From a virus (lineage: Duplodnaviria > Caudoviricetes), in the IMG/VR virus record IMGVR_UViG_3300022177_000001, positions 1 through 52,363 of that record: a DNA stretch of 52,363 nucleotides. One strand, given 5' to 3'. The stretch's first letter is position 1. Every line of letters begins with the position of its first letter. Below the pieces are notes generated by a model. The model was given only the letters and a program-made list of their open reading frames with translations, did no database searches and was not told where the DNA came from. This document shows, piece after piece, positions 3,272-38,470 of the stretch. A program made the translations under genes and the position numbers.

Positions 3272-6200
3272 TGCACGCCCCCTGTCTCAAGAAACTTGAG
3301 CATCCGCTTGTTCGTTTGCTTCGTGTCGGACGCATGAACAGCGGTACTGTACGTGTTGTCTCGAATCTCCTTCATGAGCGCCGTGTTCTGCCGCTTCAGG
3401 TCACGGACCTCGGCCACGAGTTCCGCATACCCGTCGCCGGAGTTTTTCCACGGGGCCGTGAGATCGACGGGAATTTTTCCGTTCTTGAGCGGGACGTGGG
3501 CCTCCGGCCCGGTTTCTGCGACGTAGGCGAGCTGTGGAGTCCAGGAAATGCCGCCCTCTGCAAAGCCAGGGATGTCAACTCCAAGTTTCGTCTCGACGCC
3601 CTTCAGTGCCGCATAAAAGTCCGCGAGTTTGGCGTCCAAAAGCATCGCGTACGATGCATCTTGAACCTTCCACGTGCTCATCGACTGGTATCTTGTGATT
3701 TCGTCCTTCAAGGTACTGACAAGGCTGTTCTTCTGCGATGTCGTCAGCCCGGACGCGCTCGCATCGGTGACCAGCTTTGAAATCGCGCTTGAGCGCGAAA
3801 GGATGGTGCTTACAACCTGCTCCGCCGTCTTTCCGGTATCCGTGACACCGCTCACTCCAGACGTTGGGATTTCCATCCCGGTCCACAGCGCCAGCTCTTT
3901 TTCCAGGGTCGCAATTTGCGAGGACAATCCCTGCGCGGTCTGCATGTGCGAGATGGCCGCCATGGGGACGCCCATGATCATGGCCATCATGGCCGAATTG
4001 TTGGCGCTCGACTGAGTGTCCTTCAGTGCCGAAATCTGGGCCGTCAGCGTCTCCACCTTTGTCTGACGCACCAAGTAAGCCTGGATGCCCTTAAAATATT
4101 CCTTCATGTCGCTTTGGACCTGGAGCTGCTTGTCGATCTTGTCTTGCAGCGACCGGGCTTCGCTTTGCCGCGACGTGATGGACGCCTGAATTTTCGCAAC
4201 AACGTCGTCGCGGTACGTGTCCATGGCCTCAATCAGCTTCGCCCAGTCTTCCTGTTGCGCCGTGCCGTCGATCTTGTCCTGCAGTGCATCAAGGAGCGCC
4301 TGGGAAATATCAATGGGCTTCCCGACGGCCAGCGAAACCTGATACAGGGAATCAATCTGCGCCTTTAAAATGCTGGCCTGAGCGGATGAAAGTTGGCTGA
4401 TATCCAGAGTATTCTTCGACAGCGCGGCCTTGAGTTGCGCCTCGGTGTCGATGCTCGCGCCCCGGATCGTCTTCAGGTCGGACCCAAGCAGTTTCTCCGT
4501 GATCTTTACCCGGGCCTCTTCCAAGAGCTTGCGCAGGGCCTCGGACGCGACCGGTGAACCCACGTTCAAAATGTCCTGGATGGCGCTCATTGCGCCCTTG
4601 ACGGCCCCGTCCAGAATGCCAAGCTGGGACTTCTGGATGACCGCCTGAAAGGCCGCAAAATCGGTCTTGCCCAGCTTGTAGTCGGTGACGGCCGTGCGGA
4701 GCGCCACGAGTTCTTCCCGCGCGCCCTTGACGCCCTGGCGGATCAACAGCAGTTGCTGATTCTCCAGGGTCGCTATCCACATCTGGACTTGATCTTGCTC
4801 AACCGCGTAGGCCTTCAGGGTCTCCAGTATCCCCGACAGGACGGCCCGTGCGCCCTTGGCGTTCGTGATAACGAGGTTGTATTGAGCCTTGTTGAGCTGC
4901 GTGATGATCGACGAGGCAACGTCATCCTCAAGCTTGTAGCCCGGGAGCGCGCTTTTGATTTTGTCGATAGCGGCGAGCGCGCCACTGACGTTCCCCTTCG
5001 AAAGGGCCGACTGTGCGGCCGACAAATCCGTTTCAAGCTTTGCCCTGACATCCTCGGGGAGGTCGTAGTCCGCCAGGGCCTTCTGGAGCGACGTAAGGGC
5101 CGCCACAGCCCCTGCGACGTTGGTCACGGAAAGTGCGTCCTGCATGGCGGAAAGCTTGCCCGTGAGGTCTGCCCGCACGGTCGCAGAGAGGTCGTACCCG
5201 GAAAGTGCGTCCCGGAGGCTCATGGACGCCAAGTAGGCGGCCACGGTCCCGGCATAGGTCAAGGCATCCTGGACGGCGGTAAACTCCTGGATCAGAGCGG
5301 ATTTCGTGCCCGCGTCCAGTTCAAGCTTCGATACGGCCAACAGAATTTCATCCAGGGCCTTCTGTGCCGCTGTGGCGTCGGTGACGACAAGCTCGCGCTG
5401 GATGCGCGCCATGTGCTCGAGAAGCGTTGCCTTCATGCTCGCGTCGATGGCATACGCGGCGATGGAGTCCCGCACCTCGGCAAGCTCTTCAAGCGCGGCC
5501 AGTGCCCCCTGCGTGGTCAGCGTGGCCTGCAAATCCGTGAGCTGCCCGATAAGCTGCGCCTGGATGGACGCCGGGAGTCCGAAAGAGCCGATGGCGGCCA
5601 GCAGGGTTTCGATTTCCTTTGCCGCCGCGTCCGTGCTGGTCACGACAAGGCTTTGCTCAAGGGCCGAAATCTTGGATACAAGGGATGATTGGGTGGCGGC
5701 GTCCAGGTCATAAGCGTCGAGGGAATCTCTCAGCACCGCCAGGGCCTCCAGCGCGGCCAGTGCCCCGCCCGAGACAAGGAGGTCTTGCACCCGCTGGAAT
5801 TCCAAGATGGCTTTGGTAGCCGTATTGGGATCGGCCTCATAGGCTGCGATGTCTTTGCGCAGGGATTCCAGTTCCCGCAAAACAGCTTGGTTGCCCGTTG
5901 CGGCAATCTTGTTCTGCGCTTCCTCGAAAAGCACCACCAACGCCGCATACGACTCTTCCCCGGCCACGTACCCTTCGATGGAGGTCTTGACCTTTTCAAG
6001 CACGTCCGTTGCGTTGGTGATGGTGTCCGAGATCAGCCCGTGCTGGAGGTTGGAGAATTTGACGTACATCTCCGCAAACGAGATGTCCCCGGCCGTGTAG
6101 GCGGCAAGGGCCTTTTCAAACCCGTCGAGGGCGCTCAACGCGGTCAGCGTGACCGTATCGACAATCTGGACTTGCGCGTTCTGGAAAGCCCTCGTCAGCC

Positions 6201-9200
6201 CGGCAAGGTCAATGTCGCCTTCCTCGAAATCGGTGACAGCCTGCTCCAGGTCTTTCAGCGACTGGAGCGACGCGGCGGCGGCCGTCCCGGTCAGTTCCAC
6301 GAGCACCGCGCCAAGCTGGTCGGAAAGCGCGGCCGTCGTCGCCGCAGGGAGGCTGTACCCCGGGAGCGCGGCCTGGAACGCCTGGACGGCTTTCACGGCG
6401 TCCTCTGTGGATCGGTTCGCAAGGGCATCCTGGATGGCCCTGATTTGTGCCGTGATGCTGGTGGCGACGCTGCCGGAGATGTTGTAGGATGCAAACGTCT
6501 CCGTAAGTCCCTCAAGTTCGGTCCCGGCAGAGGACAGGACGGCCTCTAAAAACTCGACCTGGGCCGTCTGAATCTTGGTCCGGGTCGCATCGAAATCGAT
6601 GGTGTTTCCCAGGTAGTCGGAAAGGCTCTTGGTCGGGTCTTGCAGGATGGCCAGGAGGTCTTCGGCCTCAAGGAGCAAATCCGGATCGCCGAACGCGGCC
6701 AGGATGCTCTGCATAGTGGACAGCAGCGCGGCCTGGATTTCGGAAAGCGCCTTGAGCAAGTCTTCCTTGTCGGCAAAGTCGTCCGACGTATCCGCAAGGG
6801 AGTTCAACTCGTTCAGGGTCTTGTAGTAGGCCCTGCGGTACTCCAGCGGGTCTGTGGTGGACTTTTGCAGCGCGGAAAGCATGGTCTGCGCCTGCCCGCC
6901 AATCTCCGACAATGCCGTCCTGTTCCCGGTGAGCGCCAGATTGTAGGTAGCCTTGTACGAGTTCAAGGCTTCCTTGTACTTCGCTCCAGGGTCAAGGACG
7001 CTTTCTGCACTCTGCGTGAGGTCTTCAATGACATCGCGGATGGAGTCTGCGGCGCTCCGGTAGGCGTCGGCGGCCTCCTGGGCCAGAAGCGCCTGCTCCT
7101 GCATCAACTGCGCCTGCTTCTTGAAGCTGTTTTCCAGCGTCGTCGCTATGGAGTCGTAGCTTTCCCCCGTAACGTCCAGGTTCAGCATTTTCCGAAGCTG
7201 CGCCTCAAGCTCGTAGATTTGCGTTTCGACCAGCGCGAGCTGCTGGGCGTAGGTCATGCTGCTGGCCCGGGCCTCGGCAAGCTCCTGCTCGGCGTCGATC
7301 AAGGACTTGAGCGCGTCGGCCTCTTTTGTCCGGTCGTCGGCCAGAAGCCGCCGGTGCTCCAGGCCCTTGTCGAATGCCCATTCCTTGAACTCGATGGCCT
7401 CCAGTTGCCGCTGCATCTCTTGGAGCCCCGACACATAGGCCGAGATTTCGGACCACCAGCCGAACGCAGAGGGCGGCATGGCGCTATCCATGGCCTCCTG
7501 ATAGGCGGCCCAAAATGCGTCAACGTTGCCCTTGATCCACGAGACATCGAAGCCGGGAAGATACGACGATGCGTCTTCCGACTTGTTCTTAAATTCCGCA
7601 AGGTAGTAAGAGAGCGCGTTTTCGACCTGTTCACGGCTCGTGAACGCTCCTTCGGAGAAGCGTTCTATGGCCGCCTCGAATGCATCCTCGTCGCCTGCGG
7701 CTTTAACCAGCAGCTCGGAATACTGCGCGGCCAGGATGTTGCTCAGTTGCGTTTTGAACTGCTTGAAGTAGTTGATGACATCAACCGTGGCGTCCGAAAT
7801 GTCGTCGTATCCGAGCGCCTGCCGCTCCATGGCTGCCATCAGCTCGTCTGACGTGGCGCTCAGGCCCTTGGACACGGCGGCATACTGCAATACTTGGTCG
7901 TCGGTGATGCCCGACATTTTCACCAAGTTCATCCCCATGGACTCGACACGGGGCTTGACCGTCGCGAACGCCTCGCCAAGACGGATCAGTACGGCGTCCA
8001 GGGATTCGTAGCCGTCCTGGGCCATCGCGACCGCATTGGCCAGGTCTCCCAGGGCGTAGGCGGCGGCCTGCGACCGCATCACGAATTCCACGGCCCCCTG
8101 AAGCTCGTCCGGAACAGGGATGCCGACGAAGCTGAAGGATCGCTCCCAGCCCTTGGTGAAGTCGATTTCGAGGGCCTTCATGGCCTCGTTCATCGAATCG
8201 ACGTTCTCCTGGAAAGCCTTCCGGGCCGCGTCCAGCTCGGCCGGATCGATGGCGGAGATTTTGTAGCTGCCATCGTCCATTTGGGTGTAGCCGTAGCCGA
8301 GCATCGAACCGCCGAGCCAGGCCGTGGCACGGCCCTGCCAGACGGGCTGGGCCTCCTTCTTTTTTTCCTGCTCGGTCATCCCGCTAAAAATACTAACGAG
8401 TCCGCCGATTCCGGCCACGAGCCCGCCGACAACAGGGTTTACCAATGTCAGCAAAGAGCCAGCCGTCATCAACCCGCCGCCGATGCCCATAAGCGTGTTC
8501 CCGGACGCGAACCCCCCGGCGGCCGTGGCCATACCCGCCGCCGCACCCAATGCCGCCGTTCCGTTTCTGCTCCACCAGCCTCCGGAGGGATTGGCGTACT
8601 GATTCCCCTGGTAGCCGTAAGACAAGGTGCTGCGCCCGTCGTGCGTGGAGTATCCGCCGTTGTACCGGGCGTTGTTGCCGCCCCCAGATAGCGCGGAGAG
8701 GATGTCCCCAACCCCAGCCCCGCCGCCGGAGGACGATCCTCCCAGCAAGGCCCCGAACACGTTCTTTTTCAGCCACTCCGCAAGCATGTCCTCAAGGAAC
8801 GAAATGAAGCTGTCCAGAAGCCGGTTCAGCATCGACTTCCAGGCGTCCTCAAAACTCTTGATGTCGCCCGACGCCAAGCCGCGAAGTGCATCCCCAAGGC
8901 CCTGCGCGATGCCCTCGGAAAGGTCGTTGGACAGCGAAAGCATGCGCTCGGCCGTGCGCTTCCATTCGTCTTGGAGCTGGCCCATGGCCGACTTGTAGGA
9001 ACCGCTGTCGAGGGCAAAGACGGCCTGGATGGCCTCGCCGAGGTTGCGCGGGGCGTTGGCCTGGGCTTCGAGCTTGCGGCGGTTGTAGTCGTCCCACTGT
9101 TGGGCCGCGTAAATCTTGTAGGCCAGTTCGTCTTCGGCGCTCTCTTTGACGACGGCCAGCTTCTCTTCGACCAGGGCCTTTTCGGCGTCCCAATACTTCG

Positions 9201-24766: not shown

Positions 24767-26374
24767 CTACCCCCCGAGGGTTATGAATCCTCGTTCCTCG
24801 TAAACGCTTGGCCCTGGCGCTCCGGCGTCGCCCACCATCGCCCCGTTCATGGCCATGGCCAGGGCCACGATGCCGTCGATGCGCCCCGTGCTCTTGATCT
24901 TGTCGAATTTGCGGTTCCCGGCCGGGTCGGTCTGGACGCGAACATTTGAGGCGCACATGGTCAGCACAGGATGGTTGCCGTGCGAAATCTTCCCCTCGGC
25001 AAGCGCGTCCTCAAGCGTCTCCACGGCCGGGTTCATGTCTTTGAAGCCCTGGCCATGCGGAATGAGCCGGATCGCGCCGTCAATCGGATCATCCTTGCCG
25101 TCGATCCAGACTTCCACGCCCTCTTCGGCCAAGGCGCGCTGCAAATCTTCGATGCGCCAGCGGTCGAAACGAAGGCCGCGCAAGGTGAATTGCGCGTGCA
25201 ACCGCCCGAGTTCTTGCGCCACGTAGCGGTAGTCGATGGTCTTGCCGGGAACGGAGGTCAGGTGGCCTTGTCTGGCCCACAAATCGTAAGGAACCTTGTC
25301 CTTGTCGGATCGGTCGCGGATGTTGTCGGCCGGGGTCCAGAAGAATGGCAGGATGTGCCACATGCCAGCGAGGTCGCGCGTCACGCATACCAGGGATGTC
25401 AGGTCGTTTTTCCCTGACAGGTCCAGCCCGGCATAAACCTGGAAGTCCTCGAAGGCGGACAAGTCCGGATGCGTCCCGTTGGCCCGCCACACATCCGGCG
25501 TGATGAAGTGCGCGGTCGCGTCGATGCGCTGATTCAGGTGCAGATTGCGGAACGCGGCTTCGGCCGAAGGCATCCGCCGGGCCTTGGTCGCCGTCTCGCG
25601 CATGGTCTTGAGCGAACAGAAATCGTCCAGGGCCGGGTTGCAGGCGAACCAAGTCTTTTCGTCCCACGGGTCGGCGTCTTTGGGCGCGGCGAACAGGCAG
25701 CACACCACCGTTGGGTCTTCGATTTCGCCGCTTTCGGCCTTCGTCCCGTAGTCGATGAGTTCCGACAGAAGCGCCTTGTCGTCCGGGGCCTGCGTGGAGA
25801 ACACGAACACCAGCGGTTCGGCGTGCGCGCCCCGGGAGGTCATGAGCGCGTCGTAAAGCGTCCGGTCACGGCCAAATTCGGCCAGTTCGTCAAAAAAGAT
25901 GACGGACGCGGACTTGCCCATCTTCCCCTTTTTCTCGCCGGAAAGGACTTGGTAGACGGACCCGGAAACGGGATCGATGATCTTCTTGCGGGACTCGACC
26001 ACATTCAGGCGCGCCGAAAGTTCTTCGTCGGCGTAGACCATGGCGGTCATGTATTTGAACAGGATTCCGGCCTGATCGGAGTCGATGGACAGGCTGTAAA
26101 GCTGGCCGTTGCGGATGGCTTCCGGGCCACACAGGTGCGCCAGTCCGAGCCCAGCCACCAAGGCGCTTTTCCCGTTCTTCCGGGGGATGGAAAACGTGGC
26201 TTCGCGGACCAGCCTCTTCCCGTCAGGCCCGACGGGCGCGTAGACGCGGCGGATGAACTTCTTTTGCCAGTCGCGCAACACAAGCGGTTGCCCTGCGTTC
26301 GCCCCGTCCGGGCACCGCAGGGTTTCCAGGAAGTCAATGACATCCTGGGCGCGCTTGTGGTTCATGTCAGCCAC
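24767..26374 (-). CDS. terL: Terminase large subunit
   Basis: PRKNGKS Walker A, FFDE Walker B, GLDLS nuclease motif, RIDG.VA. Confidence 0.97.
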   Translation of the reverse strand: MADMNHKRAQDVIDFLETLRCPDGANAGQPLVLRDWQKKFIRRVYAPVGPDGKRLVREATFSIPRKNGKSALVAGLGLAHLCGPEAIRNGQLYSLSIDSDQAGILFKYMTAMVYADEELSARLNVVESRKKIIDPVSGSVYQVLSGEKKGKMGKSASVIFFDELAEFGRDRTLYDALMTSRGAHAEPLVFVFSTQAPDDKALLSELIDYGTKAESGEIEDPTVVCCLFAAPKDADPWDEKTWFACNPALDDFCSLKTMRETATKARRMPSAEAAFRNLHLNQRIDATAHFITPDVWRANGTHPDLSAFEDFQVYAGLDLSGKNDLTSLVCVTRDLAGMWHILPFFWTPADNIRDRSDKDKVPYDLWARQGHLTSVPGKTIDYRYVAQELGRLHAQFTLRGLRFDRWRIEDLQRALAEEGVEVWIDGKDDPIDGAIRLIPHGQGFKDMNPAVETLEDALAEGKISHGNHPVLTMCASNVRVQTDPAGNRKFDKIKSTGRIDGIVALAMAMNGAMVGDAGAPGPSVYEERGFITLGG

Positions 26375-26804
26375 CGAACATCTTCCTTGCCGGGCGTTTC
26401 TCTATCTCCCCGGGCTCTTTGGCCGCCTGCTTGATCGAAACGCGGCTGTTGGCGCAGATGCGGAGCTTGGTGGCCAGGGCCGCCATGGTCGCGGCGGACT
26501 TCTCCATGATCTTGAACCAGGGGTTTTCGCGCGGGACCGGGCCGTTTTGCGTCATGACCACGATCACGGCTTCGTCGCCGTCGCACCGCTCACAGGCCAG
26601 GAAATGCTTCGCCTCGGCTTCGCAGTAGGCCCGCAAAAGCGGCAAATCTCCGGCCTTGAAGTGGTCCACGGCGTAGTCCTTGACGATGGAAAGCCAGCGG
26701 CCCCTGGCGCGCGGAGACATTCCGGCCGGAGGCCCTGGACGCTTCGCCGTCTTCGTGGCGACAACGGAGAGTTTCCCTGCCGGGGTCGGGCCGCGCTTAC
26801 CCAT
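26367..26804 (-). CDS. terS: Terminase small subunit (P27 family)
   Basis: GKRGP start, L..YC, ENPW, L.I...SR; overlaps the terL start. Confidence 0.9.
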   Translation of the reverse strand: MGKRGPTPAGKLSVVATKTAKRPGPPAGMSPRARGRWLSIVKDYAVDHFKAGDLPLLRAYCEAEAKHFLACERCDGDEAVIVVMTQNGPVPRENPWFKIMEKSAATMAALATKLRICANSRVSIKQAAKEPGEIEKRPARKMFGG

Positions 26805-27102
26805 GGGCCGCCTGCCTCCAGGGATGGTTCGGGGAAAGCGGGATGCCGTTCACGTCGCACCCCTTCACCAGAAATTCGTCTTCGGTCTGGTCGCGCTTCG
26901 AGTAGTTGCAATTCTCGCAAGCGGAACGGAGATTCGCCCGGTCAAAGAACTCCCCGCCCCGGGCAATCGGCGTGGCGTGGTCAACGGTCGTCGCCACGGT
27001 CACGCGCCCGGCTTGTTTGCAGTAGTGGCAAAGCGGGCTCTCGCGTAGGACGATGGCGCGAAGCTTTTTCCACTGCGCGGTGTGGTAGCGGGGATCGTCC
27101 AT
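26797..27102 (-). CDS. Terminase-associated HNH endonuclease (gp74-like)
   Basis: W..LR..VL...PLC..C, VDH..P...GG, NL...C..CN..K. Confidence 0.92.
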   Translation of the reverse strand: MDDPRYHTAQWKKLRAIVLRESPLCHYCKQAGRVTVATTVDHATPIARGGEFFDRANLRSACENCNYSKRDQTEDEFLVKGCDVNGIPLSPNHPWRQAAHG

Positions 27103-27225
27103 GCCTTTTCCTCTGTGCCGAAAAACAAAAAGCCGTGAATCTGGATGGTTCACGGCGGATGGTACAAGAGAAAAATAGAATGATGCTAGATAGTCGTTAC
27201 CATGCACGGTAACAAGTTCGCCCCA

Positions 27226-27253
27226 AAACAAAAGGGCGGCCAGAAGACCGCCC
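27226..27253 (-). terminator. Rho-independent terminator closing the TIGR operon
   Basis: Minus strand GGGCGGTC-TTCT-GGCCGCCC followed by TTTTGTTTT. Confidence 0.8.
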
Positions 27254-27283
27254 CTGTGATGGTGAAATGCTTGCGCGTGAGGG

Positions 27284-27910
27284 CTACTGTGCCATGGCCT
27301 CCCGTCGCGGGCAGTCCAGGTTGACCGGCACAAACGCCGCACTGTGGCCCTTGGTTTTCGCCAGCGCCGCCCGCAGGCGTTCGATGGTCTTGTCTTTTTC
27401 GGCCAATTCGGCGCGCAAAACCTGGATTTCCTCGGCGGCCTCGCGATACCTGGCCTCCCAATTGATGTACCGGATGACCTTTTTCGGCCTCGCGTGGGCG
27501 TCCAGAATCGCGTCCTTGACCTCGGAAGAAACCGGTGTGCTCCGCTTGTTTTCCTCGCGACGTAGGGCGTTGAAGATGATTGGGAGCTTGTCCTGGCCGC
27601 ACTGTTTGGCCGCCCGGGACACGAAGCCGATGCCGTATTTTTCGGCCTGATCGGGGAACTTGACGTAAAGCAACTTCGATTCCCGAAACTTGGTCATGGA
27701 GATGTCGAAGCACTCCCTGAGGTAGATGTCAAAATCGGCCTTGGCGTAGACCGGGTTTTCCTTGAACCGCCCGGTGTGCTCCAGATAGGCCAGGATGCCG
27801 ATGTACTTCCGGTGGGCGGTCAATTCGTCGGACTGGCAGGCCCGGATTGCGGCCTCAATGTCCGCAATGGGCTTGCTGTCGTACTTCGCTTTCAACTGAT
27901 TGATCTTCAT
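27284..27910 (-). CDS. Hypothetical protein, weakly DUF3102-like HTH plus C-terminal coiled coil (208 aa)
   Basis: AGGAGG RBS before MKINQ; F..YL.E.F.IS......LY..F pattern; co-oriented with tas. Confidence 0.7.
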   Translation of the reverse strand: MKINQLKAKYDSKPIADIEAAIRACQSDELTAHRKYIGILAYLEHTGRFKENPVYAKADFDIYLRECFDISMTKFRESKLLYVKFPDQAEKYGIGFVSRAAKQCGQDKLPIIFNALRREENKRSTPVSSEVKDAILDAHARPKKVIRYINWEARYREAAEEIQVLRAELAEKDKTIERLRAALAKTKGHSAAFVPVNLDCPRREAMAQ

Positions 27911-28037
27911 GGGGCCTCCTTTTCTCAAGCAAAAAGGCGATTGTTTCTCCGATGGTTTTGCCGAGCGTGGCGGAAAGTATTTTAATCTGCCTGTAAACCT
28001 CTGTATCTATAGGAAAGTTTACATTTTTCTTTGGCAT
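27855..28037 (-). CDS. Ribbon-helix-helix-like small DNA-binding protein
   Basis: KNVNFPIDTEVYRQIKILSATLGKTIGETIAFLL has a strand-helix-G-helix pattern; AAGGA RBS at the array end. Confidence 0.7.
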   Translation of the reverse strand: MPKKNVNFPIDTEVYRQIKILSATLGKTIGETIAFLLEKRRPHEDQSVESEVRQQAHCGH

Positions 28038-28050
28038 GGGCTTCCTTTAA

Positions 28051-28449
28051 GGGCGCATAGTCTTCATGGGCTTCAATGATCCTGTGGCTCGCACCATCCG
28101 ATTGGGTTTCACCGCCTTGGTGGCTCGCATGCTTAAAATGGGTTTCAAAGGCCCTCTGGCTCGCACGGCAGCGATGAGTTTCACGCTAGCAACGGCTCGC
28201 AGGCACGTAATGGGTTTCACAAGCACCCTGGCTCGCAACGCATCCCTGGGCTTCGCTGTGGTTTTCGACTCGCACCACCATAGTGGGTTTCCTGGTCTTC
28301 CTGGCTCGCATACTCCCAGTGGGGTTCAACGCATACTGGATCGCACGGCGACATTGGATTTCACACGTCCTTTGGCTCGCACGCCGCTTCTGGGTTTCAC
28401 TCAGACGCTTGGCTCGCAGTCTTCACCTGGGTTTCATGGTCATGGTGGC
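28051..28449 (-). ncRNA. TIGR-type dual-repeat guide array 2 (11 units of about 36 nt)
   Basis: Alternating TGCGAGCCA and TGAAACCCA repeats separated by unique spacers, mostly 9 nt (one 8 nt, two 10 nt). Confidence 0.93.
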
Positions 28450-28455
28450 AAAAAC

Positions 28456-29295
28456 TTACGCCGCCTTCTTCGCCTCGAAATAGAACGGCTCAACGATCCC
28501 GGTATGCCCCATGATCGTGCCCGCGTAGGGAGGCGTCACGGTCAACCCGTCCAGGGTCCGGGCCACGGCCCAGAAGTGGGCCAGGAACAGTTTCGCCGCC
28601 TCGTGCCGGGCGCGGTTCAGACGATGCCCCTTCTTGACCTCGGGTTGCAGCCGCTCAATGCGCGCCTTGCGCTCAAGCAGGAACGCGCCGTAGGGGGTCT
28701 TGGTGGTCTGGCGGTTGAACTGGTCCCCGATGAGGTAGCAGGTGGCGCGGCCAACGCTTGACCAGTTTTGCCGCTTGCCCTTCTCGCGGCGCGGCTTCTT
28801 TCCGTCCAGGACGGCCATGCCCATGAAGGCCCACCACTTGGAGATGTTCGGGAAATCCCGAAGCTCGATCCGGTGCTTGGTCACACCGTCGCCCTTGACG
28901 GACTTCTCGCACGCCGGGCACCAGAAAGTGCCGTCCTTCTTTTCGAGGACCGCCCCGCATGTGCAAACAGGCGTAAACCTGTAGTAGTACAACATGATGA
29001 GCCGCCCCGCGATGGCCGGGCCGATGCCGGGAACGTGCCGCATCCAATCCGTGTAGATCGGCCACGCCAGCAAATCCTTCTCGATGGCCCGGGACAGCCG
29101 GGACTTGATCTGCTCAAGCCCGGAGGATTGCTTGGTACCGTTCAAGAACGGGTCATGTTTCGGATCGGCGTCCGGGTTCAGGGCGTGAAGGCGGTTTTTC
29201 ATGCCCGTGATGACTTTGTTCAGGGCGTCATAGTCGCGGATCGACTTGTTCAGCCGCTGAATCGCCAGTTCGCGTTCCGGGGTGTCGGGCTTCAT
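28456..29295 (-). CDS. tasA: TasA-like Nop-domain RNA-guided DNA-binding protein with Zn-ribbon insertion (279 aa)
   Basis: Coiled coil, VPGIGP..A..LI, F.NISK.WAF.G, and GH..NRA.....KLFL.HFW. No N-terminal DEDD RuvC domain. AGGAGG RBS before MKPDT. Flanked by 36-nt arrays. Confidence 0.85.
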   Translation of the reverse strand: MKPDTPERELAIQRLNKSIRDYDALNKVITGMKNRLHALNPDADPKHDPFLNGTKQSSGLEQIKSRLSRAIEKDLLAWPIYTDWMRHVPGIGPAIAGRLIMLYYYRFTPVCTCGAVLEKKDGTFWCPACEKSVKGDGVTKHRIELRDFPNISKWWAFMGMAVLDGKKPRREKGKRQNWSSVGRATCYLIGDQFNRQTTKTPYGAFLLERKARIERLQPEVKKGHRLNRARHEAAKLFLAHFWAVARTLDGLTVTPPYAGTIMGHTGIVEPFYFEAKKAA

Positions 29296-29310
29296 TGGTC
29301 CTCCTGGGTT

Positions 29311-29640
29311 TGGGGTCGCACAAGGACAAGGGGTTTCATGCCCGGCATGGCTCGCATAGTGGTTACGGGGTTCAAGGTCGGGTTGACTCGCACTGGCGGT
29401 CTGGGTTTCACGCAAAAGCTGGCTCACACGACGGGCCTGTGGTCAAAGGAAACCGTGGCGCATATAGGGGCTGGACTTCATCGTAACCTTGGCTTGCATT
29501 GTCTTCCTGGGGTTCAACGCGCCTTTGGCTCGCACCATCCCTTCGGGTTTCAGTCTCCACATGACTCGCACCCCGCTACTGGGTTTCACCCTCCACTTGG
29601 CTCGCACGACATGGATGGGTTTCATGCCTCTCCGGGCAAC
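29311..29640 (-). ncRNA. TIGR-type dual-repeat guide array 1 (9 units, one degenerate)
   Basis: Same two 9-nt repeats with 9-nt unique spacers and 36-nt period. Confidence 0.92.
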
Positions 29641-29647
29641 CGATGAA

Positions 29648-29676
29648 ATAATACTTTCAGCAAAAATCCATGTCAA
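29648..29676 (-). promoter_or_regulatory. Sigma70 promoter of the TIGR-Tas operon
   Basis: TTGACA, 17 bp, TATTAT; the predicted start near 29641 falls at the first partial repeat. Confidence 0.85.
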
Positions 29677-29719
29677 GCACGGGTTGCGGTTTTTTGCAAA
29701 AAGATTTATTCCTGCCGCC

Positions 29720-29980
29720 ATGCCCACAGACAACAAAATCCTTGCCTCTGAAGAAGAAAAATTTCAGGTGTGGTGCGTGAAAAGCCGGATAGATGAATTT
29801 GCCCGCATGAGAGGGCTTCGCATGGATGAACTGGCCGAAGCGTCTGGCCTGTCCGTCGTGACAATTCGGAAAGCTCGCCGGGACGGCCCGGATGGAATCG
29901 ACACGTTGACGCTCAAGAATCTTCAAAAAATCGCCCGCGCCCTTGACCTTCGCCCAAAAGACCTCTTCTTTGACGACTAA
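29720..29980 (+). CDS. XRE-family HTH regulator
   Basis: RGLRMDELAEASGLSVVTIRK...TLKNLQKIARALD...DLF. Confidence 0.9.
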   Translation: MPTDNKILASEEEKFQVWCVKSRIDEFARMRGLRMDELAEASGLSVVTIRKARRDGPDGIDTLTLKNLQKIARALDLRPKDLFFDD

Positions 29981-30204
29981 ACCCGCGCCTCCATCCCCGC
30001 CCCGCGCCCGGCGTCCATGGCTGGAACGTCAAATTCGATGCTCCGGAAGTTACGACCGCAGTTTGGGCACTTGTGGTAGCGGAACCGCGTCGCGCCGTCC
30101 CATTTTCTGACCTTGTAAGCCGGGACAGAAGTCGCCCCGCACCCAGGGCACCGCGCCCCACTCTTCGGACTGTAGGTGACGCCGTAGTCTCCGGAATCAG
30201 GCAT
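29977..30204 (-). CDS. Ogr/Delta-like zinc-finger protein
   Basis: CPGCG...RYHKCPNCG..F.SIE. Confidence 0.6.
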   Translation of the reverse strand: MPDSGDYGVTYSPKSGARCPGCGATSVPAYKVRKWDGATRFRYHKCPNCGRNFRSIEFDVPAMDAGRGAGMEARV

Positions 30205-30748
30205 TCCGCTCCCCCCTAATCTCTTCCCGCCGCTTTTCGGCCAGGATCATCCGGCGGCGCGTGTTGCGGTTCGTGTTGGGGCGGTGGAAAGTAGGGCGAA
30301 GACGGGATGCGCGCACAGCCTCGGCCATCGCTTTTCTCAAGTCTCGGAGCCTTGAGGACACTTCTTCGCGAATCGTCCCCTTCATCGGCTCAAAATCACG
30401 CATGAATTTGTTTCTGTGCCGCTTTTCGTCGGCCTCCCGGGCGAAGTTGCGCATCCAGAGGGGGGTAAGGACGCCCCCGGCGAGGAACAGGGAGGAGCGG
30501 GGTATCGGGGCACCAGCCAGTTCGTCGAGGCGCAAAATTTTCTCCCACGTCTCCTTGCTCACAAGGCCGCCCGTGGCAAAGCCGTGAGGGTTGCCGCTGG
30601 CGCAAACCGCCGCCCTGTCATCGCCTTGAGCATGGTCAACGCCCATTACGCGGGCCAAATCGTCGGCCTTGGCATCCGCTTGGCGCAACCCGGTTTCGAT
30701 CTCCTGGCCGTCCACGAAAACTTTTCCATCCGCTATGATATTGGGCAT
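30197..30748 (-). CDS. Hypothetical phage protein
   Basis: Coupled ORF in the minus-strand operon. Confidence 0.6.
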   Translation of the reverse strand: MPNIIADGKVFVDGQEIETGLRQADAKADDLARVMGVDHAQGDDRAAVCASGNPHGFATGGLVSKETWEKILRLDELAGAPIPRSSLFLAGGVLTPLWMRNFAREADEKRHRNKFMRDFEPMKGTIREEVSSRLRDLRKAMAEAVRASRLRPTFHRPNTNRNTRRRMILAEKRREEIRGERNA

Positions 30749-31002
30749 CAGTCAACACCTTCCCATTGAACGCATCCAAATTCGGGGCGCGTCGCCAAAA
30801 AACCATAGTAATCATCGCGGTCACCTGACACCGCCAAAGAATCCGGGTGTTCAGGGTCTCCATCGAGAGTTTCTGTCAAAAGGCACTTCCCGAGCCCGTC
30901 ATAAGAGAACGCCCCTGGCGCGGTATAGACGCCTGGGAAAACAAACGCATCTTTCTCCCAATGTTTGCAGTCTTTACACCTGTCCACTTCCCCATCCCCC
31001 AT
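30748..31002 (-). CDS. Cys-rich hypothetical phage protein
   Basis: CKDCKHW...G.C...T...FGC..W pattern. Confidence 0.65.
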   Translation of the reverse strand: MGDGEVDRCKDCKHWEKDAFVFPGVYTAPGAFSYDGLGKCLLTETLDGDPEHPDSLAVSGDRDDYYGFLATRPEFGCVQWEGVD

Positions 31003-31483
31003 CTTTTTCTCTTTTCTCCCGGCTGTCGCGCCGCACCGCCTCCATGAACTCCAGGTCGTTGGTAACGGCGTATTCCATGGTCGCACACCCGTCGTCAGCC
31101 CTGGACGTGAGTTCACGCCTGATCTTGGGATAGCGGGGCTTTTTGCGAGGTTTTCCGATGGTCCTCATGGGGACCGTCTGATGGTCCTCATCGGGACCAT
31201 CTTTATTATCTCCACATATTTCTTCCAGGGCGGGCGCAAATTTGTATATCGTTGCCCTCACCGTCCTGGTTGCGGTGACAACTCCTTTTTGAACCAGCCC
31301 CGCTATCGCCCGCCGCAGACTCCCGCCTTTCAAGCTGGTGGCCGTGGACATCCATTCCCTGCTACGGATCACCCTGCCCGTGCGACGGTCCCGGGCGTGG
31401 GCGAGGCACAGTGCCAAACATTTTTCAGGTGCCGTCAGGTCTTGTCTCGCCATAATCATCGCCTGGATCGAGTACGTGTCCAC
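30974..31483 (-). CDS. Winged-HTH DNA-binding protein
   Basis: LT..EK..L...S.......T.L....L.RAI..L..KG.V. Confidence 0.7.
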   Translation of the reverse strand: MDTYSIQAMIMARQDLTAPEKCLALCLAHARDRRTGRVIRSREWMSTATSLKGGSLRRAIAGLVQKGVVTATRTVRATIYKFAPALEEICGDNKDGPDEDHQTVPMRTIGKPRKKPRYPKIRRELTSRADDGCATMEYAVTNDLEFMEAVRRDSREKREKDGGWGSGQV

Positions 31484-34024: not shown

Positions 34025-34451
34025 ACGACGCCTCCCAAGGGTGGGCCGCCGCGACCTCGTGATGACGACGGGCGGCCCCTTTTGGGAAGGCATCTTACAG
34101 CGGAATCAAGAGGGCGTGGTGTCTTAAATTGTCTAATATTGTTCAAAATTGTGCAGTGAGGGCTGGCACTTTTGCGTGAAAATGTGGCCGAAACTCTGTA
34201 TGAAGGGGCACACTCGGTTACCAGCTATACCCCCCCAGGGTTTCACCCCCCCCACCTCCCCCTCGCGCGCGCGTGAGACGGCTACCGCGTCGGGACGAGC
34301 TTGCCGCCGTCCTGGTCCAGGCCGTGACCGCCCACGAGCTAGCCGCGCCTGACTCCTGCCTGCCGTTGACCATCATTTGCGGATCATTCCGGTTTAACCT
34401 CGTGCCGTCCTGGTCCGCGTCTTGCTTTGGCCCTGAGCAGGAGGAACGACC

Positions 34452-34691
34452 ATGACCACCACACCCGAGCTTGACCACACCCAAAGCCAGGCCCCGGCTT
34501 GTGATCTGCTTTCGGCCGCTGAGGCCGCGCGACTGATCGGATTTCGAGCGGTGCAAATGGTTTACCGCCTCGCGGACCTCAAGCCCGCGCGGACCAAACC
34601 CCGGCTTTACCACCTCGCGGACGTGCAGCGGATCGCGGGGGAGTACGAGCGGGCAGGCCGGAGCGGCACCATGCGACGTACAAAATCTTGA
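34452..34691 (+). CDS. Small HTH protein (excisionase/MerR-like)
   Basis: LLSAAEAARLIG......VYRL...LY.L.DV; GAGGA RBS. Confidence 0.65.
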   Translation: MTTTPELDHTQSQAPACDLLSAAEAARLIGFRAVQMVYRLADLKPARTKPRLYHLADVQRIAGEYERAGRSGTMRRTKS

Positions 34692-34768
34692 ACCTTTGCC
34701 CGGCGAAATTCCCCCGCAAACCCGCATGGCATGGCTACATCTTATTGAAATGATTGAAGTATAATTAT

Positions 34769-34784
34769 TTGTACCGAAGTACAA
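34769..34784. promoter_or_regulatory. Palindromic operator-like site in an AT-rich leader
   Basis: TTGTAC-CGAA-GTACAA next to TATAAT, upstream of the plus-strand operon. Confidence 0.5.
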
Positions 34785-34928
34785 TTTTTTTTACGAGCTT
34801 GCCCGGCTATCGTTTGCAAATACCTGAAATCATTCATCGGTTAAATGCTTGTACGAGTGGCACGCCTCTTGCTTTACCTTTGGCATAGGCGAACGGGATC
34901 GGCCCGGGGCCACAAACAGGAGACCGCC

Positions 34929-35393
34929 ATGCTCTCGACCACCGACCACGCCACCCCCGATCCCCTGGTGCCGACGCACCACGGCGCAGAGCACTACGTC
35001 AGCCTAGACGCCATCCGTCGCGCGGCCGTGCGGCTGCATCTGATCGACCCGGCCGATGCCGACCGGCTGGTATCGCCTCACGACCTGCATCAGGACGGCG
35101 GACGCCGCCCAAGCCTGATGGCGGAATTTTTCGACAACTCGCCCGTAGAATACGACTCACGGTGGCTGCGCGTCGGCCACACCGGTCCCACCGTGCGCAC
35201 CATCGCGCGCCCCCTAGGCCGCATCGTGCTCGTAGACGATGACCAGCCCCAGGTATGGGACGGCGACGTCGGCACCAGCGAGGCGCATTTCGCCGCCGAG
35301 GCCGCCCAGACCGAGGCCATCCGGACGTGGTACATGCTGGCCAGCGTGGCCATGGCCTACGAGGGGGCGACCCTCGGCGACATCATGATGTAG
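34929..35393 (+). CDS. Hypothetical protein
   Basis: AGGAG RBS; first gene of an orphan operon. Confidence 0.7.
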   Translation: MLSTTDHATPDPLVPTHHGAEHYVSLDAIRRAAVRLHLIDPADADRLVSPHDLHQDGGRRPSLMAEFFDNSPVEYDSRWLRVGHTGPTVRTIARPLGRIVLVDDDQPQVWDGDVGTSEAHFAAEAAQTEAIRTWYMLASVAMAYEGATLGDIMM

Positions 35394-35402
35394 GAGACCA
35401 CC

Positions 35403-35687
35403 ATGGCAATCGACAGGAGACAGGACATGCACCGCAACACCGCTATCGACCAGATCAATGCCGCCATGCGCGCCCATGAATTCACTCGGGCGGACGAAGT
35501 CGCCCTGGAATACTACCGCGCCCGATTTGCCGACGGCTGGCGGCCCAGCTACGGAGACCTTGGCCGTATCGGCGTGCGTGACGGGGTATACGAGTGCCAC
35601 GTCGCTGATAAGTATGTGGCTGTGTTCGCGGCGCACGAAATAGGAGGGGGCTTTGGCCGCGTGCGCGGAATCGGGACCGTCGCCTAA
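35403..35687 (+). CDS. Hypothetical protein
   Basis: AGGAG RBS overlapping the previous stop codon. Confidence 0.7.
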   Translation: MAIDRRQDMHRNTAIDQINAAMRAHEFTRADEVALEYYRARFADGWRPSYGDLGRIGVRDGVYECHVADKYVAVFAAHEIGGGFGRVRGIGTVA

Positions 35688-35759
35688 CCCCCAGCCGCCT
35701 GCCCGGCGGCACTATGCCCGGGACGCCTGGGCATACACTGCCGAGCAACCGAGGACCAC

Positions 35760-36890
35760 ATGGACATTTTCGACGCCGCCGAAAAAATAACCGAGGCCGC
35801 CCAGGCCATGGGCTACGGCGCGCGGACCCACGTCGCGGAAACCGGATCGGTCTATCTGGATTTTGCCCGTGACCGCGCCGACGGCGGACTTGATGAATTA
35901 ACCGTGAGGGTTTCGACGCATGGCGAGTGCTACCCCCCGGCGGCCGGAGTGCGGCAAATCTCCGTGGACCCGGACGGCATGACTGTGGATCAGGCCGCGG
36001 ACTGCCTTCGCGACCCTTCGCGGGTGACGCCGGAAGCCCCGGCCGCGCACGCCCCGGCGATCACGCACTACTCGTGCCAGGGTGGATCACAGACCTGGTT
36101 GCCTACGCGGCACCCCTGCGTTTCCTACGACTCGGACGCCCAGAACGTGCGCGGCGCGACAGACCCCTATTTGATCCAGGCCAGGGCGCTACGCGCACGC
36201 CCGCAAATCCTGGAGGACACGCCGCCCGGGGCCGCCGTAAGGTGGTTTTCGGCGCGCGGCTCACAGGCTGTGATTGCGCAAATGCACGAGGGCCGATTTC
36301 CATGGAATCCGGATATTCCGCCGGAAATTTTCGTCATCTACTCCGAAACCTCGAAAACCGTTGTTCCCAAGGCTGTTGGCGTGGCGCTCTATGGAAAACC
36401 GAGCATCGGGATTGATCGAAAACAGCAAATATCGAAATGGGGCGACAGCACGTTGCGGGCCGAGGTTGTGACCGCCGTGCAGCACGCGCTCAATCCGTTC
36501 ATGCGCTCGGCATTGGCTGGAGAATTGAGCCCACAGGATTTTTACCATGCGGCGTGGTATAATGGAATTCGAATTTTCAATAAATACGCCGAACACAAAA
36601 ACATTGTCACGCACGGAAAACAATATGCGGACGGCCTGTCATGGTTCAAAACGCTGATGGCGAAATTGCGTCGTGAACTCGGGATTCCGTCGCCGTTTGA
36701 CGTGTGGGGAAAGAAAATTGCCGTGGCCCGGGCAAATGGACGACGGGGGGGCCGCCGCCAGACCATACCGTGGAACAAATACGATGCCCGGATTCTGGCC
36801 GGGGAAAACGTCGCGGCCCTCGCGGACGAGATAGGGTGTTCCCGTCAGATGGTTTACAATAGGAAGTTTCAGTTGAAAAAAATCACATAG
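35760..36890 (+). CDS. Hypothetical protein with C-terminal HTH
   Basis: GAGGA RBS; AR.NG..GGR and VAALADEIGCSRQMVYN. Confidence 0.7.
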   Translation: MDIFDAAEKITEAAQAMGYGARTHVAETGSVYLDFARDRADGGLDELTVRVSTHGECYPPAAGVRQISVDPDGMTVDQAADCLRDPSRVTPEAPAAHAPAITHYSCQGGSQTWLPTRHPCVSYDSDAQNVRGATDPYLIQARALRARPQILEDTPPGAAVRWFSARGSQAVIAQMHEGRFPWNPDIPPEIFVIYSETSKTVVPKAVGVALYGKPSIGIDRKQQISKWGDSTLRAEVVTAVQHALNPFMRSALAGELSPQDFYHAAWYNGIRIFNKYAEHKNIVTHGKQYADGLSWFKTLMAKLRRELGIPSPFDVWGKKIAVARANGRRGGRRQTIPWNKYDARILAGENVAALADEIGCSRQMVYNRKFQLKKIT

Positions 36891-36904
36891 AAAGATAGAT
36901 TAAA

Positions 36905-36974
36905 TCGTTCCCCGCAGTGCGGGGGTGGACCGTAGAAAAGAGTTTTGTGTTCCCCTGCGTGCGGGGGATAGGCG
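36905..36974 (+). CRISPR. Two degenerate type I-E-like CRISPR repeats separated by 14 nt (solitary repeat units, no cas genes)
   Basis: TCGTTCCCCGCAGTGCGGGGGTGGACCG and GTGTTCCCCTGCGTGCGGGGGATAGGCG resemble the E. coli I-E repeat GTGTTCCCCGCGCCAGCGGGGATAAACCG. Confidence 0.65.
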
Positions 36975-37011
36975 CAAACAATCCCTACGCAGCAACCCGC
37001 CGGTCCCTGGG

Positions 37012-37239
37012 CTACTGCCTCGCCCGGCGCGCGCGCCACGCCGCAAGCTCACACGACGACGCGCGCATGGTCGATCCCGGGCCGCCGTCCTGGTAGACCG
37101 GGGGCGGATCGTCGCCCCGAAGGAGCACGTAGAGTGTGCCTCGTGAAATACCAAGCTCATCGGCCACCTGTTTGGCCGTCGTCAGGTCGCACGCCTGGAC
37201 AGGCCCGAACCCGACAACGGGGGCTTTATCGGTCTGCAT
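37012..37239 (-). CDS. AlpA/excisionase-like HTH protein
   Basis: TAKQVADELGISRGTLY..L....P; L.AW. Confidence 0.75.
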   Translation of the reverse strand: MQTDKAPVVGFGPVQACDLTTAKQVADELGISRGTLYVLLRGDDPPPVYQDGGPGSTMRASSCELAAWRARRARQ

Positions 37240-37495
37240 CGCGCCCTCCTGGCCGGTCCTGTTTGACCCGGCCCTTGAAATTGCCCCGGGCGTCGAAAAC
37301 CTTGCCGTCGCGAATGCGCCCTTGGAACTGGCCCCTGGAATCGAACACCCTGCCGTCGTAGACGCGGCCCTGGTAGCGGCCCTGGGTGTCGTAGATGCGA
37401 CTGGACTCCCTACGCGGCACCTCGCCGGTCCCTGAATCGGCCAGAGCGCAGGAAGCGGACAGGGCCAGGATGATGATGGCGATGATAAGTTTCAC
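37226..37495 (-). CDS. Exported protein with short beta repeats
   Basis: Signal peptide; three (Y/F)D..G.(Y/F).GR repeats. Confidence 0.7.
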   Translation of the reverse strand: MKLIIAIIILALSASCALADSGTGEVPRRESSRIYDTQGRYQGRVYDGRVFDSRGQFQGRIRDGKVFDARGNFKGRVKQDRPGGRDADR

Positions 37496-37938
37496 GGCCT
37501 TTCCTCCCTACGCGGCATGTCGCCGGTTCCCGTCCACTCCCCTTTCTTCCCCCCGTCGTACTCCCTCGCCAGCCCAAGCCCCAGGAGCGCCGACCCCACG
37601 TCGATGCCGCCGCACTCGACCCGCGCCAGAAGCCGAAAATACTTGTCCCGGGCCACGTCACGCAGTTCCGCCACGCTCCCGGCCGGGCACCAGCCTCGCA
37701 CCTGATCCCGGGCCTGGACGGCAATCTGGCGCGTTTCATGCGTACCCCCGCGCATCTCGGGCGTGTCGATGCCTCGCACGCGGACGCCGATCCGCTCCCC
37801 GAAAACCGCAGGCGCATCCGGAATATCCACGGTCAACGTGTCGCCATCGTAGACCGAGACGACTACGGCCGACAGGTCTGCGGCGTGGACGGGCCAGGGC
37901 AGACAGGCCAGGACAAAAAATAGAGCGATGGACTTCAT
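37492..37938 (-). CDS. Thermonuclease (SNase) with signal peptide
   Basis: V.DGDT, R.RGIDTPE, DKY.RLLA and GLA..Y motifs. Confidence 0.92.
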   Translation of the reverse strand: MKSIALFFVLACLPWPVHAADLSAVVVSVYDGDTLTVDIPDAPAVFGERIGVRVRGIDTPEMRGGTHETRQIAVQARDQVRGWCPAGSVAELRDVARDKYFRLLARVECGGIDVGSALLGLGLAREYDGGKKGEWTGTGDMPRREERP

Positions 37939-38240
37939 GGCGACTCCGTTTTCTCGACCCGCACAACCCTTTCCCGTCTCCCCCACTCCCTGGCCGTGGC
38001 TTCGTCCTCGACGCACAGGTCGATGGTGCGCCGGGCATCAGGGCCGGTCAAGTCTTGGATAAAAACCCAACCTACGCCATCCACATGGATTTCTTGGCCT
38101 AAAAGATCACGCATGTCACGACTTACAGCAGCAGTCAGCCCCGGGCGCACCTCGTGCCCCATGGCCCCGATGCCGTTGCTGCCACCCTGGCCCGGATGGT
38201 AGGCGGTTATCATGAGCAGGCCGAGGGCGAGGGCTTTCAC
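37935..38240 (-). CDS. 3D domain-containing protein
   Basis: TAY, AVS.D, G..I...G.G....D and IDL motifs. Confidence 0.75.
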   Translation of the reverse strand: MKALALGLLMITAYHPGQGGSNGIGAMGHEVRPGLTAAVSRDMRDLLGQEIHVDGVGWVFIQDLTGPDARRTIDLCVEDEATAREWGRRERVVRVEKTESP

Positions 38241-38470
38241 GAGCCTTCCCCCGTCAGCACATAGCTGTGAACGTTTTGTTGCGTCCCTGCCATTGTGACG
38301 ATGGTCTTGCGTGCCGGGCGGCAACGGCCCTCTTTGATAGCCATTTTGAGCAATTTTCGTACCTTCTCTTCGCCGCACATCATGGCTTCGGCTATCTCGG
38401 CAGTGGTCATCCCTTCGCCCTGGCTGGCCTCGTTAAGCCTCGAAAGAAGGTCAACCATGTCCACGGTCAA
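38237..38470 (-). CDS. Small winged-HTH protein
   Basis: GMTT.EIA........VR..LK....G; start codon uncertain. Confidence 0.6.
   Translation of the reverse strand: MTVDMVDLLSRLNEASQGEGMTTAEIAEAMMCGEEKVRKLLKMAIKEGRCRPARKTIVTMAGTQQNVHSYVLTGEGS

Follow-up and report, generated by a model that had tools for sequence, protein, structure and literature searches.

Does a TasA protein that lacks a nuclease domain act alone in a phage, or is it joined by a second, dedicated protein? TIGR-Tas loci have been described as RNA-guided systems with a single effector, and what a nuclease-less TasA does is an open question. It is raised here by a TIGR-Tas locus in the IMG/VR virus record IMGVR_UViG_3300022177_000001 (Duplodnaviria; Caudoviricetes), the whole of which, positions 1 to 52,363 (52,363 nucleotides, nt), was analyzed and is called the window in the following. 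On the minus strand of the window, tasA and two TIGR arrays are followed by an open reading frame (ORF) of 60 amino acids (aa), which resembles ribbon-helix-helix (RHH) proteins, and by a gene of 208 aa, termed p208. As judged from its genomic context in related loci, the 208-aa gene is a real and conserved partner of a clade of phage TasA proteins.

The linkage of p208 to the TasA/TIGR module is almost certain and was found from either gene. A search of IMG/VR with a 30-sequence TasA profile yielded 35 loci, several of which are duplicates of one another, and in 31 of these 35 a p208 homolog lies behind tasA on the same strand, at a distance of 70-1820 nt and with E-values of 1e-15 to 1e-31 for a narrow profile and of <=6e-39 for a wide one. 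When an 18-sequence p208 profile was used instead, tasA adjoined the p208 homolog in 11/11 loci (upstream in ten, downstream in L050), six of which are located on contigs that the TasA search had missed. Additionally, the TasA profile identified five loci on contigs of GTDB genomes, with p208 present in 5/5. The four TasA loci for which p208 was not found are L009, where just 698 nt of sequence are available behind tasA, and L007, L010 and L037, which contain tasA and an array, have adequate downstream sequence and carry other genes in the position of p208. The neighborhood survey that the initial annotation had proposed thus bears out the association of p208 with tasA. The same annotation had regarded both small genes as candidate partners of a nuclease-less Tas; this holds for p208, which is linked to tasA and shares a module with it, and does not hold for the 60-aa ORF, which is not conserved (see below).

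In these loci the guide array is normally placed between tasA and p208. For 25 of the 27 distinct loci, the best autocorrelation of the sequence between the two genes was obtained at a lag of 36 or 37, and in L004, a 1.2-kb contig with a 64%-identical p208 homolog, the TIGR array runs directly into the ribosome-binding site (RBS) of this gene. An exception is L034, where an insertion of 1.8 kb (5976-7794) separates tasA from the p208 homolog and the 36-nt periodicity is lost; within the insert lies an ORF of 264 aa whose DPPY motif is characteristic of DNA methyltransferases. The other exception is L050 (3995-5629), in which the order is reversed, with the p208 homolog before tasA. The reversed order was also found in L052 (1589-3278), and in L043 the p208 homolog is directly followed by another Tas-like fragment, encoded on the other strand. 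The five GTDB loci (L052-L056) are on short contigs or in metagenome bins labeled as Desulfobacula, Smithella, unclassified 'Deltaproteobacteria' or Proteobacteria, and no other genomes of the collection were found to contain this TasA clade; these labels are hints that the module hosts are sulfate-reducing or syntrophic anaerobes.

In the window, the order on the minus strand is promoter, array 1, tasA, array 2, 60-aa ORF, p208 and terminator, with the following features:

29648..29676, minus strand: promoter-like site (TTGACA-17-TATTAT) upstream of array 1, 11/12 consensus positions
29311..29634, minus strand: TIGR array 1, with edge repeat TGCGAGCC and loop repeat TGAAACCC, a period of ~36 nt and ~8-9 units
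28456..29295, minus strand: tasA, 279 aa, with matches to NCBIfam NF052498 and to the TasH structure
28051..28440, minus strand: TIGR array 2, 11 units/loop repeats, period of ~36 nt
27855..28037, minus strand: RHH-like ORF of 60 aa with ATG start, from the ORF list, with weak Pfam matches
27284..27910, minus strand: p208, 208 aa, within ORF 27284..27928, with an internal ATG at 27910
27232..27255, minus strand: intrinsic-terminator-like hairpin (10-bp stem, 7 GC pairs, T-run) directly 3′ of the p208 stop
29655..29980, plus strand: divergent gene of the XRE type with a helix-turn-helix (HTH) domain (Pfam HTH_26, 5.8e-08)

The sigma-70-like site at 29676..29648 was the sole promoter-like site found on either strand of the region 26700-30100, and transcription of the TIGR operon is predicted to begin there. 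The hairpin at 27255..27232 is the sole strong terminator on the minus strand of this region. Past the terminator follow genes for an HNH protein (Pfam, 3.4e-09), the small terminase subunit terS (Terminase_4, 9.7e-07) and the large terminase subunit terL (TerL_nuclease, 2.5e-28). The layout described in the initial annotation was therefore largely recovered: both ORFs are present on the minus strand, the 60-aa ORF starts right behind array 2 (its ATG is located 14 nt past the truncated edge repeat) with the 208-aa gene downstream of it, and a terminator separates the two from HNH-terS-terL. It has to be corrected in that the 60-aa ORF overlaps the start of p208 by 56 nt in a different frame.

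The identification of tasA itself is sound. The protein matches the family NF052498 (TIGR_Tas_endo) with an E-value of 1.4e-27 and 97.1 bits, slightly under the curated cut-off of 100, and the 30-sequence TasA profile matches the PDB chains 9mty_A (3.8e-41) and, for TasH, 21kl_A (1.6e-12). The protein contains a coiled coil, a CxC...CxxC zinc ribbon and a Nop-type C-terminal domain, a Pfam search of it revealed no nuclease domain, and a protein search found 193 TasA relatives. In both arrays the edge repeat TGCGAGCC alternates with the loop repeat TGAAACCC; Tandem Repeats Finder reports a period of 36 at 29529-29607 in array 1, the 3′ end of which reaches the RBS of tasA, and the final edge repeat of array 2 is truncated (TGCGCCC, 28057-28051). 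By these features, the system in the window is a dual-repeat TIGR-Tas with a nuclease-less Tas. Additionally, the window and L002/L003 were searched for self-targets of the 16 spacer pairs, the two matches of a pair having to lie within 30 nt. This search gave 0 perfect matches and 5 matches with one mismatch, which is about chance level by a rough estimate.

Further evidence for the partnership comes from the way in which the genes are inherited. Among 29 loci (406 pairs), the pairwise identities of TasA and of p208 correlate with r = 0.873, a value reached by 0/2000 label permutations, and with r = 0.754 when only pairs with a TasA identity below 70% are considered; the median identity is 31% for p208 vs 50% for TasA, p208 being the faster-evolving protein of the two. 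A blastn comparison of the window with L002 (16.6 kb) showed homology only at 27250-27923, in parts of array 2, at 28446-29459 and at 29927-30030. It stops at 27250, inside the p208 terminator, and at the other end the block 29927-30030 (88% identity) places the 3′ end of the XRE gene in the shared module. In the window, the shared part is flanked by a zinc-ribbon gene and, at the opposite end, by HNH-terS-terL; its neighbors in L002 are portal/MuF at one end, and at the other a pair of genes on the opposite strand together with scaffold/capsid genes. Since the same module is thus found between unrelated flanks, a module of ~2.8 kb has moved between phage backbones. It comprises the divergent XRE gene, promoter, array 1, tasA, array 2, p208 and terminator. 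Because p208 is linked to tasA in nearly every related locus and moves with it as one module, it has to be considered a genuine candidate partner of the nuclease-less Tas.

Next to these comparisons, a census of the 149 ORFs within ~3 kb of tasA at 29 loci was performed with Pfam, in which p208 is the sole constant neighbor of tasA. The commonest Pfam families are TerL_nuclease (7), TerL_ATPase (6), gpA-type large subunit (3 and 2), terminase small subunit (5 for Terminase_4 and 3), portal (4 and 3), DNA methylase (5) and HNH (3 and 2), and no ParB family is among the 25 Pfam families listed. In phage genomes, the border of the packaging genes seems to be a preferred site of TIGR-tasA-p208 modules, and the adjacency to terminase genes may simply mark a common insertion spot.

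The position of p208 behind the array may have consequences for its expression. In the window, L002 and L004, an AGGAG-type RBS with an ATG lies no more than ~14-20 nt behind the last, truncated edge repeat. The RBS and start codon behind the array of the window (28038-28057) resemble a degenerate loop repeat (AGGAAGCCCA-TG vs TGAAACCCA), as do those at L002 7975-8003 and L004 262-287. As the RBS and ATG are loop-repeat-like and the truncated edge repeat lies just before them, the gene start seems to be built from the repeat unit of the array. Since p208 would be translated behind the array on the pre-tigRNA transcript, with an RBS abutting the last truncated repeat, its synthesis is likely coupled to guide expression. 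According to the accessible part of a preprint (10.64898/2026.09.09.750476), dual-repeat pre-tigRNA is cut inside the edge repeats. The p208 message would for this reason be what is left at the 3′ end once the array has been processed, which would tie its dose to guide production.

Transcription of the locus was assessed with assembled contigs from four metatranscriptome runs of mixed cultures, possibly from one campaign. The contigs are of low depth (3-5) and do not prove a single transcript. In run X3, one contig (27251-28231) begins in the terminator hairpin and extends through p208 and the 60-aa ORF into array 2, and a second one (28204-29634) contains the remaining array 2, tasA and array 1; contigs from X4 (27425-27978) and X6 (27833-28122) also bridge the junction of the 60-aa ORF and p208. 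The arrays are covered as well, and assembled contigs give no information on processing. The contigs end at 29634 (X3), 29625 (X4) and 29643 (X6), a few bases past the -10 box, a weak hint at the 5′ end of the transcript. Neither the uncovered stretch 27009-27251 in X3 nor the bins 30718-31368 carry evidential weight. Co-transcription of the two ORFs with the arrays, as assumed in the initial annotation, is backed by the layout of promoter and terminator and by the bridging contigs, which support it and do not prove it.

For the 60-aa ORF the comparisons lead to a different result. Relative to L002 and L004, the window contains an insertion of 127 nt (27911-28037) between the last repeat and the start of p208, with a GC content of 42.5% vs 58.5% for p208 and 62.4% for tasA. 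No homolog of the 60-aa ORF was found in 50 related loci, in IMG/VR or in GenBank phages; its only plasmid match (NZ_CP065724.1) has an E-value of 0.1, and no ParB gene is annotated on this plasmid. By these comparisons the 60-aa ORF is a lineage-specific insertion, a one-off in this phage and not a conserved TIGR-Tas accessory. The insertion would be recent, and the ORF, if expressed, probably encodes a small DNA-binding regulator that was added to the operon.

We consider it possible, and rather doubtful, that the 60-aa ORF is not a gene at all, and instead an open frame in inserted non-coding DNA that supplied a new ribosome-binding site for p208; the insertion does provide a new AAAAGGAGG site, which precedes the internal ATG at 27910. 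In accordance with such an explanation, the ORF is a singleton and all of its Pfam matches are below threshold (the RHH domain MatP_C with an E-value of 0.018 and 15.8 bits at a cut-off of 24, Omega_Repress with 0.12). Because of the 56-nt overlap with p208, only ~42 codons are private to the ORF, the final 18 being an out-of-frame reading of p208. Against it stand an ATG located 5 nt behind AAAGGAAG, a sequence in residues 1-40 that reads as a clean strand-helix-helix pattern, and the coverage of the ORF by the RNA-library contigs. In line with these observations, its ESM recognition value of 3369 is reached by 91/100 known-family proteins and by 9/100 shuffled ones, and the ESM Atlas gives feature scores of 0.93 to clusters of small viral proteins, one of which carries RHH_1 in 26% of its members. 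Base 27924 is missing from a single X6 contig (289 nt, depth 3.2), so that the frames of the 60-aa ORF and p208 are joined into one stop-free RHH-linker-p208 reading of 250 aa. This deletion may be genuine or, at that depth, result from an error of sequencing or assembly.

Which kind of protein p208 encodes was examined with sequence and structure methods. A word-based protein search found only four relatives (62-64% identity). With a profile search the family grew to 300 cluster representatives at E <= 0.001 (248 of them at E <= 1e-10), and nearly all of these have a length of ~200 aa. With a 97-sequence alignment, AlphaFold2 predicts an all-helical protein without any strand (predicted local distance difference test, pLDDT, 93.0; predicted template modeling score, pTM, 0.71), consisting of a compact N-domain (1-145) and a single long C-terminal helix (151-190); the N-domain modeled alone is also strand-free (pLDDT 92.3). 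The isoelectric point (pI) is 9.4, and 29/29 homologs are basic (pI 9.2-9.9). The most conserved positions are E19, L40, Y42, L43, R48, E51, F60, Y63, G93, G95 and C104.

None of the searches assigned a name to this family. Pfam, PHROGs, NCBIfam and PADLOC gave none for p208, and neither did Pfam for 97 members, 29 N-domains or ten longer representatives of the family. Sequence profiles of the PDB returned only coiled-coil or albumin noise, tblastn against GenBank phages offered no route to a name, and a further protein search with the family alignment retrieved family members only. Foldseek found nothing at E <= 0.001 in PDB and BFVD; among the weak structural matches, all above E 0.3, ParB/KorB DNA-binding domains recur and three BFVD rows carry DUF3102 (E 0.8-5.3). 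In the ESM Atlas, p208 has a feature score of 0.91 to clusters carrying DUF3102 or Plasmid_parti_N. The DUF3102 profile (PF11300) itself has no match in the window at E <= 10, and it was also not found in 401 genomes of one phylum, the control genomes likewise giving no match.

The nearest published analog of p208 among the systems compared is tasParB, and p208 fails the ParB homology tests that were run. According to the accessible text of Faure et al. 2025 (PMC12045711), the parB-like gene tasParB is operonic with tasA, with TIGR arrays around and between the genes, and its product has a predicted C-terminal dimerization and HHpred matches to ParB domains, ParB-like CTPases and ParB/Srx being among those cited. 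The association with ParB is called 'occasional' in this text, and TasA is described as otherwise without clear associations with other proteins. A literature search (supplements excluded) found TasParB only in PMC12045711 and no paper on a TasA partner other than ParB; the word 'ParB' is absent from the accessible part of a preprint on asymmetric targeting. The claim of a new subtype in the initial annotation was hence only partly right, as a DNA-binding-type partner operonic with tasA had been published in 2025 (PMC12045711, accessible text).

Our first reading, in which p208 was TasParB, was downgraded after the hhalign controls. We now regard it as a minority view that p208 is the published TasParB, a diverged ParB that kept its DNA-binding and dimerization parts and a new member of the described operon type. 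The layout of the operon with arrays around and between the genes, the periodicity of the gap and the C-terminal helix all fit the description of tasParB (PMC12045711, accessible text), and the recurrence of ParB/KorB domains in the structure search and the absence of any listed ParB family from the census, where p208 is the only constant neighbor, point in the same direction. However, the profile-level similarity to ParB, for which Faure et al. used HHpred, was not recovered by Pfam or hhalign. No ParB-family Pfam match was obtained for p208 at E <= 1, no ParB family was listed for 97 full-length members (E <= 0.01) or 29 N-domains (E <= 10), and HTH_ParB (PF17762) has no match in the window at E <= 10. 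When an alignment of 30 chromosomal ParB proteins was compared with the p208 profiles by hhalign, the N-domain reached a probability of 0.7% and the full-length profile one of 0.6%, and controls (reversed ParB, or TasA against either profile) gave 0.2-0.3%. Being near the control level, p208 is not detectably a ParB at the profile level. The ParB/Srx nucleotide-binding domain has a mixed alpha/beta fold, and both AlphaFold2 models of p208 are free of strands. Moreover, the published association is 'occasional' (PMC12045711, accessible text), whereas that of p208 is nearly universal in its clade.

We somewhat favor the interpretation that p208 is a dimeric DNA-binding partner of TasA-tigRNA, the dedicated second protein of this dual-repeat TasA branch. 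In this model the N-domain, with an HTH-like core around residues 60-84, would bind nucleic acid, most likely DNA, and the 40-residue C-terminal helix would most likely form a coiled-coil dimer. On bound DNA, p208 would act together with TasA-tigRNA by stabilizing or extending silencing, or by bridging DNA. The individual steps are not equally secure: p208 is not a nuclease, its binding to DNA is fairly probable, and a direct cooperation with TasA, though plausible, falls somewhat short of probable. The prediction of a TasA-p208 complex (score 0.00 vs a mark of 0.32) weighs neither for nor against binding. A more far-reaching version is speculative and, in our view, improbable. It sees a large TIGR-TasA branch as a two-protein machine, in which p208 would be an obligatory, guide-coupled, ParB/KorB-like dimer without a CTPase domain that turns the short TasA-tigRNA recognition into stable silencing, bridging or tethering, and which in this phage would be gaining an RHH head, with the frame-fusing deletion of the X6 contig as a first instance.

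Several observations weigh against the partner model. L007, L010 and L037 have tasA and an array without p208, so TasA can exist without it; no sequence profile ties p208 to any DNA-binding family, and its DNA binding, dimerization and contact with TasA are predictions. Co-divergence and shared mobility can arise from physical linkage alone and demonstrate joint inheritance rather than joint function, and the low-depth RNA contigs give no proof of one transcript. Finally, a TasA of the stem-loop type represses transcription alone in E. coli, as stated in the accessible part of preprint 10.64898/2026.09.09.750476. There are two further explanations, the main functional rival being that p208 is a transcription factor for the module or for neighboring phage genes (e.g., the downstream packaging operon) and not a partner of TasA on its targets. 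Its predicted architecture of a basic, HTH-like dimer would suit such a regulator, modules often adjoin terminase genes in the census, and p208 is the last gene before HNH-terS-terL in the window. We nevertheless regard this as unlikely: the module already has a divergent XRE regulator that travels along, and a packaging-gene regulator should remain beside its target genes, whereas p208 stays with tasA across a complete change of flanks and co-diverges with TasA. Even less can be said for p208 as an ordinary phage gene that happens to lie beside a TIGR locus without any functional tie. The three tasA loci without p208 and the hypothetical nature of the TasA-p208 interaction would allow for it, but the co-occurrence from both genes, the array between them and the exact boundaries of the shared module in an unrelated backbone make it highly improbable and close to refuted.

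If the partner model is true, there would be a conserved second protein on the guide transcript, co-diverging with TasA across phages and prophage-like loci in bins of the Desulfobacterota type. This would change how dual-repeat TasA has to be reconstituted, as the native activity may escape assays that contain only TasA, and it would give a concrete handle on the role of TasA in phages as well as a compact DNA-binding module for TasA-based repression tools. If p208 is the published TasParB, the locus would only be a good new example of it.

Two additional observations from the RNA data concern other parts of the phage. The region 34450-38320 is matched by contigs in all four runs, with a word depth of 22-122 vs 0-10 over the virion, packaging and TIGR regions; expression of the phage in these cultures may be highest there, although contig depth reflects expression poorly. 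Contigs from X3 and X4 that match only 25917-25948 of terL (32 nt) continue on both sides into the same GC-rich palindromic sequence of ~27 nt. The flanked stretch looks like a CRISPR spacer between repeats, and if so, a co-cultured organism carries and transcribes a spacer against terL of this phage.

Compared with known systems, p208 resembles DUF3102 (PF11300) proteins of phages and plasmids in its size and in its helical and coiled-coil layout, and differs from them in that PF11300 has no match in the window and all structural matches are above E 0.3. With ParB/KorB (PDB 6s6h, 1vz0, 1zx4, 1r71, 8qa8) it shares a helical domain with an HTH-like core, a predicted C-terminal dimerization element, a basic character and its location on a mobile element, a likeness that is weak and structural. 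For TasA, the closest functional counterpart is MbTasA, also a nuclease-less Tas, for which the accessible part of preprint 10.64898/2026.09.09.750476 reports guide-directed DNA binding and silencing of transcription; unlike the system in the window, MbTasA is of the stem-loop type and acts partner-free in E. coli, and the words 'ParB', 'accessory', 'associated gene' and 'neighbor' are absent from that part of the text. Guide-based silencing of the MbTasA type is the activity that p208 would most plausibly assist. The tasParB-tasA operons differ in the ParB/Srx domain and ParB profile similarity that p208 lacks. They are similar in combining, within one operon, a nuclease-less TasA with another protein of non-enzymatic appearance and predicted C-terminal dimerization, in the dual-repeat arrays placed before, after and between the genes, and in their phage setting.

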